NCBI GenBank assembly: GCA_000165345.1
Contig: CM000432.1
Coordinates: forward strand, 1,040,418 to 1,104,417
Length of the DNA stretch: 64,000 bases
Direction of reading: 5' to 3'
Positions 55,001-58,000 of the stretch are shown here, in pieces. Numbering within the stretch: position 1 is the first letter of the stretch; each line of letters begins with the position of its first letter. The position numbers were made by a program.

Positions 55001-58000
55001 AGTTTAATTGAAGATGCTGAGATGTCAGTAGAGAGTAATGCTATTATTTCTCAAAGTCAATTTCTCATTGAAGAAAAGAGGCTAAACCAGTTATTTTTAT
55101 CGCTTTCTTCTTATACACGAAGTGATATTTTAAAAAAATTAGAAAAAGCTTATGGTAATGGAGAGAAACGTTTAATCAAGGAGATTAACCCATTGTTTGA
55201 AGAAATTCTGTTAATTATTGAACAATGTTTGTTATTAGTTGAACTATTTGCAATGCAAACAATTAGTAAAAACTTACAATCAATAGTAGATATTTTAATT
55301 ACAGTCATTCCGGAAATAATATCCAAATCAAAAGAATCTATTAGCAAGTTAAGAACAGCGGATGATAGACAATTTAATCGGCTACTTAATGAAAATTCTA
55401 ACCGTCCTGAACTCACTTCAAAAGCAATGAATTATGATGTAGAAAGTATTAAAGAAAGAGAAATTAGTTCTAAAGAATTTCATAAAATGGGAGACTATAA
55501 AAAACTTCTTAGTGGCGAAGAAGTTAATTTTGGCCAGAGAGAACTGGAGCTTGTTTCTAACTATCACAAATTATTTTTTGATACAGATCTTACAGATGAA
55601 GAAGTTTTTTTTTTAGAGTCATTATTTTCAGGTTTCATTTCCTTAGCTTATTTTGCATGTCTTAATGCATTTCTATTTAATCGCCAAGCAAAAAGTGAAT
55701 GTTTTACAACTATGTTCCAATTAAATGCAGAGTTTCAAGAAACCATCTCTAAGAGAGGAACTAATCACCTTGTTTGTGCTGAAAAACGATTAGAAATAAG
55801 AAATGAAGTTCATAGTCTATTAAAAGTTGAAGAGTTTAAATCATTCGATCTTTCAACAACATCAATAACTAAATCATTGGATAAGAAAGAAGTAATTGAT
55901 AGTTATAGGACAATTTATAGATTATTATTAGACAATATGCAACTGTTCAGGAGTTTTGAGATAAAGTTTTCCAAGGTTAAATTTTTAAATACTTTTTTCC
56001 ACTCGACTTTATCTAAAGTCGAACATGTAACTAAATTGGTGTTGGAAAACCTAAAAAAAATTAATGATATGAGCTTGGAAAGCACATCAATAACAACAGC
56101 TTTAAATATTAAAAAAGAAAATTCTTCAGAAAAACTAGTTAGAATTTCTCAGAAAGTTGATAATATTAAATCTGTGAAAGCTAAAGAACAAGAAGATAGT
56201 AAGAAAAAGTCTTCCAAACAAAAGAAAGAATCTAGATATCCAATAGTTTCTGAAGAACGAGCTAGACTTTTAAATTTAGATAAAACCCCAGAAAATAAAG
56301 AATCAAATCAAGAAGCCAATCAAAAACCAAAGACAAGTAAGTCTAAATCTGAAAAGAAAAAAGTCCAAATCCTTAAATTACAAAAAGAAGCCGAAAAGTC
56401 ATCGGCAAAAGAAGAAATAAAACACGTATTGATGAGTACCAGACTTGAAAATACTACTGGTGGAAAGAGGAAACAGGCGAAAAAAAATAAAAATAATAAA
56501 AAGAAAGTGGAAGAAAAACATCAAAGAGAATTAAGACAGAAGGAAGAAATAGACGATAAAGAGTCTGGGGATGAAAATAAGAATCAAAATTATTCATCAT
56601 TAACCTTGTTGGCTGAGTTAAGAACTGAATTTGAGGTTTCATCAAATAAGGAGGAAAGTTTGAATTTGGTTGCTATGATTAATTCTATATTTGATTACAT
56701 TCAGGAAAATATGAAACAAATGACACCGAGTCATGGATGTACTTCAAAAACACTTGGTGAAAACTCTGCCGTTGTTGAATCTACAAAATCACATTCACCT
56801 TCGAGTATAGAAACAAATAGTCTATTTGATGCAACTCACTCATCTTCTAAATCAGAAGATAAAGTGCCAGTTATATTAGGGAATGAAGCAAGCAATGCAA
56901 TTGGAACTGAAACTTCAACACCCCAGGAAGGACATATATCAAGATCAAAAACAAGATCAAAATCAAAATCAAGATCAAAATCAAGATCAAAATCAAGATC
57001 AAAATCAAAATCAAGAGCAAGATCAAAATCAAGAACAAGAGCAAGATCAAAATCAAGATCAAGATCAAGAACAAGATCAAGAACAAGATCAAGATCAAGA
57101 TCAAGAACAAGATCAAGAACAAGGTCAAGAACAAGATCAAGAACAAGATCAAGATCAAACTTAGATTCTGAACTCGATTCAGGAACTAGTAAAACAGAGT
57201 GTACAGAAGGTAGTTCTGTACTTGCTGAACCTTTTAAATCAAAATTTTTGAAGATGTTTGTGAAAGAGCCCTTAGAAGATTCTACTCCTTCAGTAATGAA
57301 ATTTTTCAGTATTTCATATCCAAATGAGCCAACTGTTACAGTAATGTCAGAGGCTAAAGAAATTTTTAATGAAGTTCAAAATTGCTTTTTGGAAACGGCC
57401 AGATTACATAATGAAGTTTGTAAACTTTTGACAGGTACAGATTTAATATTAGTTAAATCTGTGGAAGAAAAGTATATTGAGCATTGTCTGTTTCTTTTGC
57501 AGCTTTACGCTAAAAAGAAGAGTATTCAAGAATGAAATTTGCAAATTTTTTTAGATTAATTTTTTTTTGTTTCTATTTTTTTTCTTGAAAACCGATCGCT
57601 AAACCAATTTATTAATCAAGAATCTCAACAATTATTTTCAAAATTAAATACAATTTCTTAAAATAATTTATTATATTTTAAATCTAATTTATACCAAAGT
57701 TTCTATAACAATACTATTATTATTTAAATCCAAGATTTAAAGTTTCAATATATGTATTTTTCCTATATTCAGAATTGTAACCGTTTATTTTTAACACGAT
57801 ATTAATAGAAAATGAATGTTTATAGTTTAATAATTAAGAAAGAAAGTCATAAATATACAATTCGAAGTAATTTGGATTACTTTTTGGAGAGAAATGAAAT
57901 ATAGATATTATATTAGTGCACTAGATAAAATAATTTAAAATGAGAAATTATATTATAATTGTATATCAGTTTAATATAAATGTTATTGAAGAAAACTTTA

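Follow-up and report, generated by a model that had tools for sequence, protein, structure and literature searches.

The window analysed here is a 64,000-nucleotide stretch of the forward strand of Cryptosporidium parvum chromosome 4 (GenBank assembly GCA_000165345.1, contig CM000432.1, positions 1,040,418 to 1,104,417), and all coordinates below are counted from its first letter. Close to its telomeric end lies a long open reading frame (ORF) into which a Ser/Arg/Lys-rich repeat is built:

54719-57535, + strand: 938-aa ORF, the SKSR-family gene cgd4_4490 / CPATCC_0021750 of C. parvum chromosome 4, assigned from the ORF list, orthology and synteny
63076-63892, + strand: telomere repeat (TTTAGG)n, ~126 copies, starting 5.5 kb from the stop of the SKSR ORF (57535)

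The identity of the gene was established from orthology and gene order. The best protein match of the ORF is a 914-aa C. hominis ‘Uncharacterized protein (SKSR family)’ (CUV05934/PPS92675, E=0), which is 94% identical across the 740 residues preceding the repeat. Protein searches with the full ORF, or with its low-complexity parts removed, returned the C. hominis cluster only, from a collection without the C. parvum copy, though with a C. parvum paralogue. At the 3′ end of C. hominis chromosome 4 (LN877950), an ABC transporter, an amino-acid transporter, DHFR-TS, and proteins of 566 and 409 aa are followed by the orthologue, a 698-aa protein and a TTTAGG telomere. The ORF sizes in the window run in the same order, with the SKSR ORF downstream of DHFR-TS. 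Because this gene order and the TTTAGG telomere are shared with C. hominis chromosome 4, the window gene is cgd4_4490, and its placement is subtelomeric, in an arrangement that matches the C. hominis chromosome end. At 2817 bp, the ORF also has exactly the length of the published CPATCC_0021750 interval. The orthologue, the DHFR-TS synteny and the telomere bear out the assignment of this DNA to Cryptosporidium, which had been made beforehand by a reading of the sequence alone (hereafter, the sequence-only reading). The long ORF and the 94%-identical orthologue likewise set the frame of the repeat, which had been read correctly as RSKS.../RSRT....

The gene cgd4_4490 is named among nine C. parvum SKSR genes in a 2025 review (PMC12688253), and its C. 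hominis orthologue is called CHUDEA4_4490 in the supplement of a typing study (PMC12446620). A literature search under the names cgd4_4490, Chro.40510 and CHUDEA4_4490 found no functional study, localisation or expression data.

The telomere tract as a whole (63076-64000) is noisy, containing extra G/T and a ‘ttcccgcc’ interruption, and it ends in a C-run followed by ctagagtcgacccgccaggc.... This tail resembles a pUC-type XbaI-SalI polylinker read at low quality, and it is probably vector or read-tail sequence that was not trimmed from the end of the chromosome.

An imperfect hexanucleotide array shared with C. hominis

The repeat consists of the following parts:

56939-57154, + strand: array of 36 in-frame hexamers NCAARA, encoding [S/T/A][R/K], aa 741-812
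56939-57052, + strand: 5′ half of the array, SK/SR-rich (units 0-18), holding a perfect period-12 run at 56962-57008
57053-57154, + strand: 3′ half of the array, SR/TR-rich (units 19-35), holding a perfect 36-bp ×2 duplication at 57052-57123

A tandem array had been proposed at 56937-57165, and TRF, direct reading of the units and shuffling all confirm one at 56939-57154. TRF called 56938-57158 with a period of 12 (18.4 copies, 88% matches, 0% indels), and its score of 302 is among the highest of the TRF arrays in the 64-kb window. The pattern TCAARA(NCAARA)3 matched 22 times in the window, in every case within the array and in a single 6-nt phase, and matched in 0 of 100 shuffles of the sequence. 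Unit by unit (n=36), the array contains 17 TCAAGA (SR), nine TCAAAA (SK), seven ACAAGA (TR), one ACAAGG (TR) and two GCAAGA (AR), after which a TCAAAC (SN) unit closes it. The 36 hexamers follow one another without indels and the frame is kept throughout. Unit positions 2-4 are invariant, position 1 is T, A or G, position 5 is G or A, and position 6 differs once (in ACAAGG), such that every variant still encodes S/T/A followed by R/K and none breaks the frame. The description of the repeat as perfectly periodic and pure is therefore right as to phase and wrong as to purity, given 88% matches and variation at positions 1 and 5. The true unit is 6 bp, or two codons, rather than the 12 bp that had been taken as basic. 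The estimate of about 19 repeats is close to the 18.4 period-12 copies of TRF, but the two 12-mers named for it occur exactly only 6 and 5 times, so that it counts variants as well.

A long pure repeat run was looked for in the array and none was found. The longest perfect runs extend over 3.8 copies at a period of 6 bp, 3.9 copies at 12 bp and 2.0 copies at 36 bp, and a maximum of about four perfect copies at any period fits a modest length instability of the array. ORFs in other frames over the array (56871-57164), one of 93 aa on the + strand (‘QDQNQ...’) and one of 95 aa on the − strand (‘LILIL...’), were rejected as genes and are by-products of the periodicity.

Codon usage within the array is nearly uniform. 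All 26 of its Ser codons are TCA, as compared to 32 of 100 elsewhere in the gene, 26 of its 27 Arg codons are AGA, and Lys, Thr and Ala each use one codon. This uniformity, the exact duplications within the array and the single-unit, in-frame indels described below all point to slippage or unequal exchange at the level of DNA units. Judged from the codons, such a pattern would not be expected to arise from convergent selection on the peptide.

The array differs in length between the two species, with 24 units in C. hominis as compared to 36 in the window, making the C. hominis array 72 bp shorter. The repeat number is thus not identical in C. parvum and C. hominis, and the length difference foreseen in the sequence-only reading is real at the level of species. 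In C. hominis the array is the same in five of five assemblies (UdeA01, 30976, UKH1, TU502_2012 and TU502). The flanks of the array are colinear between the species, with 96.4% nucleotide identity, and are usable for primers. Since both species share the unit vocabulary, and in both the array is rich in SK/SR in its 5′ half and in SR/TR in its 3′ half, the array is older than their split and has gained or lost whole units since. The higher-order blocks differ, with a 30-bp period in C. hominis versus 12- and 36-bp blocks in the window. We propose that the array would have grown and been reshuffled by whole 6-bp units and their multiples (blocks of 12, 30 and 36 bp), probably driven by slippage in replication or by unequal exchange, and that point changes would arise at the two tolerated unit positions. 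Because the array is interrupted, length changes should be rare within C. parvum, and such rare changes would have summed to the 12-unit gap that now separates it from C. hominis.

Other repeats are present in the window. In the gene next to the SKSR ORF (ORF 58657-60783, cgd4_4500 by position, described as a cysteine-rich signal-peptide protein), a 69-bp ×4.4 tandem repeat encodes a Pro-rich motif at 60054-60354. C. hominis has the same 4.4 copies (L001 15267-15565), so this repeat, unlike the SK/SR array, is equal between the species. The gene two upstream of the SKSR ORF (ORF 49908-51632, cgd4_4470 by position, of the FLGN family; PMC8687662) holds an imperfect Ser/Asp-rich AGT/AGC/GAT repeat at 50199-50374, with a period of 18/39 bp versus 48/66 bp in C. 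hominis and a protein of 574 aa versus 566/565 aa. Between ORFs, at 21913-21985, lies an (AT)37 dinucleotide microsatellite (84% matches). As a run it is both longer and simpler than the SK/SR array, and it stands out more clearly as a candidate for polymorphism in length.

The tract within the SKSR protein family

Two further parts of the protein enter the comparison with its relatives:

54719-54796, + strand: hydrophobic N-terminal segment MVFNRIIILFFLCVLFINKFDFLIGS, recognised by sequence inspection and aligning in most family members
57155-57535, + strand: conserved SKSR C-terminal region, aa 813-938, its last ~80 aa predicted to be helical (family alignment, AlphaFold2)

The SKSR family has been described as one ‘with SK and SR repeats’ (PMC8767354). 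The repeat is the name-giving feature of this subtelomeric, Cryptosporidium-specific family of secreted proteins, a point missed by the sequence-only reading. A phmmer search with the N-terminal 480 aa matched a ‘SKSR gene family’ protein of C. parvum chromosome 1 (1e-7) and an ‘SKSR family’ protein of C. felis (7.5e-5), and the relatives of the N-terminal domain found by phmmer come from C. parvum chromosome 1, C. felis, C. canis, C. xiaoi and C. ryanae. The full-length family alignment is colinear, with 20-40% identity outside the tract, and the window gene is about 20-25% identical to the members from chromosome 1 and from other species. Most full-length members have an RS/KS tract, which measures 8-24 aa in those of C. 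parvum chromosome 1, C. felis, C. canis and C. xiaoi, and most family tracts lie 120-170 aa from the C-terminus, aligned with the array. The window tract, at 72 aa, is the longest seen, as compared to 48 aa in C. hominis and 8-24 aa in the other relatives. From this alignment, a basic Ser/Arg-Lys tract at this position appears to be a conserved family feature, with a length that would be specific to each lineage. In the chromosome 1 paralogue, three C. parvum versions (995-997 aa) showed no length difference in the RS tract, which is invariant there.

The best-studied point of comparison for function is SKSR1 (cgd1_140), a small-granule protein that reaches the host-parasite interface by secretion and has a proven role in virulence (PMC12092579). 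In common with SKSR1 and other SKSR proteins, the window gene is subtelomeric and encodes a hydrophobic N-terminus, a helical N-terminal domain of ~470 aa, a charged middle part rich in K/E, and an SK/SR tract that precedes a conserved C-terminal domain. The small-granule localisation and the virulence role belong to SKSR1 only and not to the window gene.

An AlphaFold2 model, built from a 10-sequence family alignment and having a mean pLDDT of 67, predicts an all-helical N-terminal domain (~aa 40-500, block-mean pLDDT mostly 80-94) and a small helical C-terminal domain (~aa 861-930, pLDDT 72-90). Residues 668-855, including the array, have no secondary structure in the model (pLDDT <50), and the net charge of the 72-residue tract is +36. 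The tract would accordingly be placed by the model as a disordered basic Ser/Thr-Arg/Lys linker between the helical N-terminal and the small helical C-terminal domains, a role that is predicted from the structure model. The N-terminal segment is read as a putative signal peptide. A Foldseek comparison of the model with the PDB gave nothing below E=0.2, the matches being generic helical bundles and transporters.

The SKSR N-terminal domain (54719-56230, aa ~40-500) is itself predicted to be an orphan all-alpha fold, with no Pfam family and a best Foldseek E of 0.2.

The composition of the tract is like that of the RS domains of SR splicing factors and of Pfam RSRP, with alternating Arg-Ser, predicted disorder and a strong positive charge, and Pfam gave a compositional RSRP match below threshold (21.8 bits, cut-off 27). 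SR splicing factors carry an RRM together with a C-terminal RS domain, whereas the Pfam scan of the ORF returned no RRM or other domain, and the window protein has a putative signal peptide and belongs to a secreted family of the parasite. With the RRM absent, the RSRP match below threshold and a hydrophobic N-terminus that fits a secreted protein, the reading as an SR splicing factor was rejected.

Taken jointly, the array is very probably the SK/SR low-complexity region of the subtelomeric gene cgd4_4490 at the 3′ end of C. parvum chromosome 4, an imperfect hexanucleotide minisatellite whose peptide would be a disordered basic linker. The tract could also be neutral filler, a functionless product of slippage that a fast-evolving secreted protein can accommodate in one of its disordered regions. 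The use of nearly one codon per residue (Arg AGA 26/27) points to recent expansion at the DNA level, a 33% length difference between sister species has been tolerated, the tract is predicted by AlphaFold2 to be disordered, and the flanks of the array are under only moderate constraint between C. parvum and C. hominis (dN/dS 0.35 in the N-terminal part and 0.76 in the C-terminal part). That the units show almost no synonymous variation is in keeping with an array that is young and was homogenised recently, and the argument for constraint on the tract at the protein level is the weaker for it. Against neutral filler, at least five species have family members with an Arg/Lys-Ser tract at the homologous position, members that are only 20-40% identical elsewhere, and the unit variants of C. 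parvum all remain within S/T/A and R/K with the frame intact. Neutral filler is for these reasons an unlikely account, and because family members retain a tract of this kind in one and the same place, its composition is probably constrained while its length is free to drift.

Variation within C. parvum and possible roles of the tract

The locus proved to be useful for typing, as the sequence-only reading had proposed, and as a marker it is not new. In the eight-locus European MLST scheme for C. parvum published by Troell et al. (2025), the chromosome 4 marker is CPATCC_0021750, described as an ‘uncharacterized protein containing SKSR repeats’ at 1,099,352-1,102,168 (PMC12446620). The primers of this marker (PMC12446620, Table S3) bracket the stretch that had been suggested for amplification:

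56900-56923, + strand: MLST forward primer Cp0021750-F, exact match, single in the window
57385-57408, − strand: MLST reverse primer Cp0021750-R, exact match

The amplicon of Cp0021750-F/R in the window (56900-57408) is 509 bp, as published, and encloses the whole array; the two 60-nt array lines printed for CPATCC_0021750 equal the window sequence exactly (PMC12446620). In C. hominis the site of the forward primer is altered, reading GAA for GGA and AGCCC for ACCCC. With the gene length of 2817 bp, both primers and the printed lines all matching the window, the published marker is the same locus, and its sequence is without difference. The scheme scores SNPs and alleles by sequencing, whereas fragment sizing had been proposed in the sequence-only reading. 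The repeat was thus already known both as the hallmark of the SKSR family and as a published typing marker, and nothing about it is new here.

The picture of variation within C. parvum comes from that one paper (PMC12446620). The marker has 21 alleles, the most of the eight loci, and an HGDI of 0.78, the highest of the eight. Nineteen alleles carry the GenBank accessions PX060327-PX060345. Repeat number was constant in 135 samples typed by whole-genome sequencing (WGS), the data being 2×150-bp reads, which are shorter than the 216-bp array, so that this lack of variation is weaker than the Sanger result and may understate variation in length. Among 305 field samples typed by Sanger sequencing, only an insertion/deletion of TCAAGA and one further SNP were added. 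The array had been thought likely to be length-polymorphic, which these data do not support within C. parvum. When the published WGS SNPs were mapped to the window, six of seven fell in the array (56972, 56973, 56985, 56997, 57083 and 57087). Five of these six are at unit positions 1 and 5, where they swap Ser/Thr or Arg/Lys units, and the one at 56972 is at unit position 4. Discrimination by the marker within C. parvum thus comes mostly from SNPs that swap unit variants, and little from length. As most marker SNPs lie inside the repeat, alleles called there from short reads need care, and long-read or Sanger data are preferable.

Samples UKP130 and UKP131 come from one experimental infection of a calf, as inoculum and product, and a single SNP at the CPATCC_0021750 marker separates them (PMC12446620). 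Because most marker SNPs are in the array, this could reflect rapid change within the array, a mixed inoculum or miscalling from short reads.

A different view of the locus is that of a hypervariable, slippage-prone VNTR, with a copy number that varies widely among isolates and that could be sized by PCR to give subtypes in the manner of gp60. In gp60, the standard Cryptosporidium subtyping locus, subtypes are defined by the copy number of a trinucleotide (TCA/TCG/TCT) tract that is purer than the array. Like gp60, the window array is an in-frame, TCA-based coding repeat that lies in a gene for a secreted or surface protein and serves typing. Unlike gp60, it is an interrupted hexamer with a copy number that is nearly fixed within C. 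parvum, and its alleles differ mainly by SNPs (PMC12446620). Wide variation in copy number would be in keeping with the 12-unit difference between C. parvum and C. hominis, with the TCAAGA indels of the field samples, and with the rank of the marker as first of the eight in alleles (PMC12446620), and the 150-bp reads behind the 135-genome statement cannot span the 216-bp array. Sanger amplicons do span it, and those of the 305 field samples yielded only the TCAAGA indel and one SNP (PMC12446620); the arrays of the five C. hominis assemblies are identical, the array is interrupted and reaches at most ~4 perfect copies, and the gene measures 2817 bp both in the window and in the long-read IOWA-ATCC annotation. 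On this evidence, we regard a hypervariable VNTR as quite unlikely, and the imperfect minisatellite with its nearly fixed length within C. parvum is preferred.

It is very unlikely that the tract is a working RS-type module, that is, a phosphorylation-controlled signal for interaction or targeting that acts after secretion, at the host-parasite interface or in the host cell. Its composition is that of an RS domain, with the sub-threshold RSRP match of 21.8 bits, and each Ser has Arg/Lys at -1, -3 and -5, which would be a candidate context for basophilic kinases. The paralogue SKSR1, moreover, is a virulence factor that the parasite secretes to the host interface (PMC12092579). Against such a module, Pfam finds no RRM or other domain, the hydrophobic N-terminal segment favours the secretory route, and tagged SKSR7 and SKSR8 were reported as ‘not in host cell’ (PMC8687662). 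A more far-reaching version is highly improbable. In it, the tract is a functional, phosphorylatable basic module of a secreted effector, and its expansion from 24 units in C. hominis to 36 in C. parvum would tune an interaction at the host-parasite interface and add to differences in host range or virulence; as a separate point, diversity in length within C. parvum may exceed what short-read genomes show. Hardly credible is the suggestion that the length of the array is an artefact of collapse or expansion during assembly: the chromosome end, with its noisy telomere sequence and vector-like tail, shows that the assembly is not flawless, but no sign of collapse was seen in the array, the ORF being 2817 bp as in the long-read IOWA-ATCC gene model, with the two published 60-nt array stretches identical and the 509-bp amplicon reproduced (PMC12446620).

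An untooled reading of the raw sequence picked out the most discriminating single locus of a 2025 MLST scheme (HGDI 0.78), without adding a marker to it. For the biology of the parasite, the tract that it picked out is a conserved hallmark of the SKSR family, to which the proven virulence factor SKSR1 belongs.
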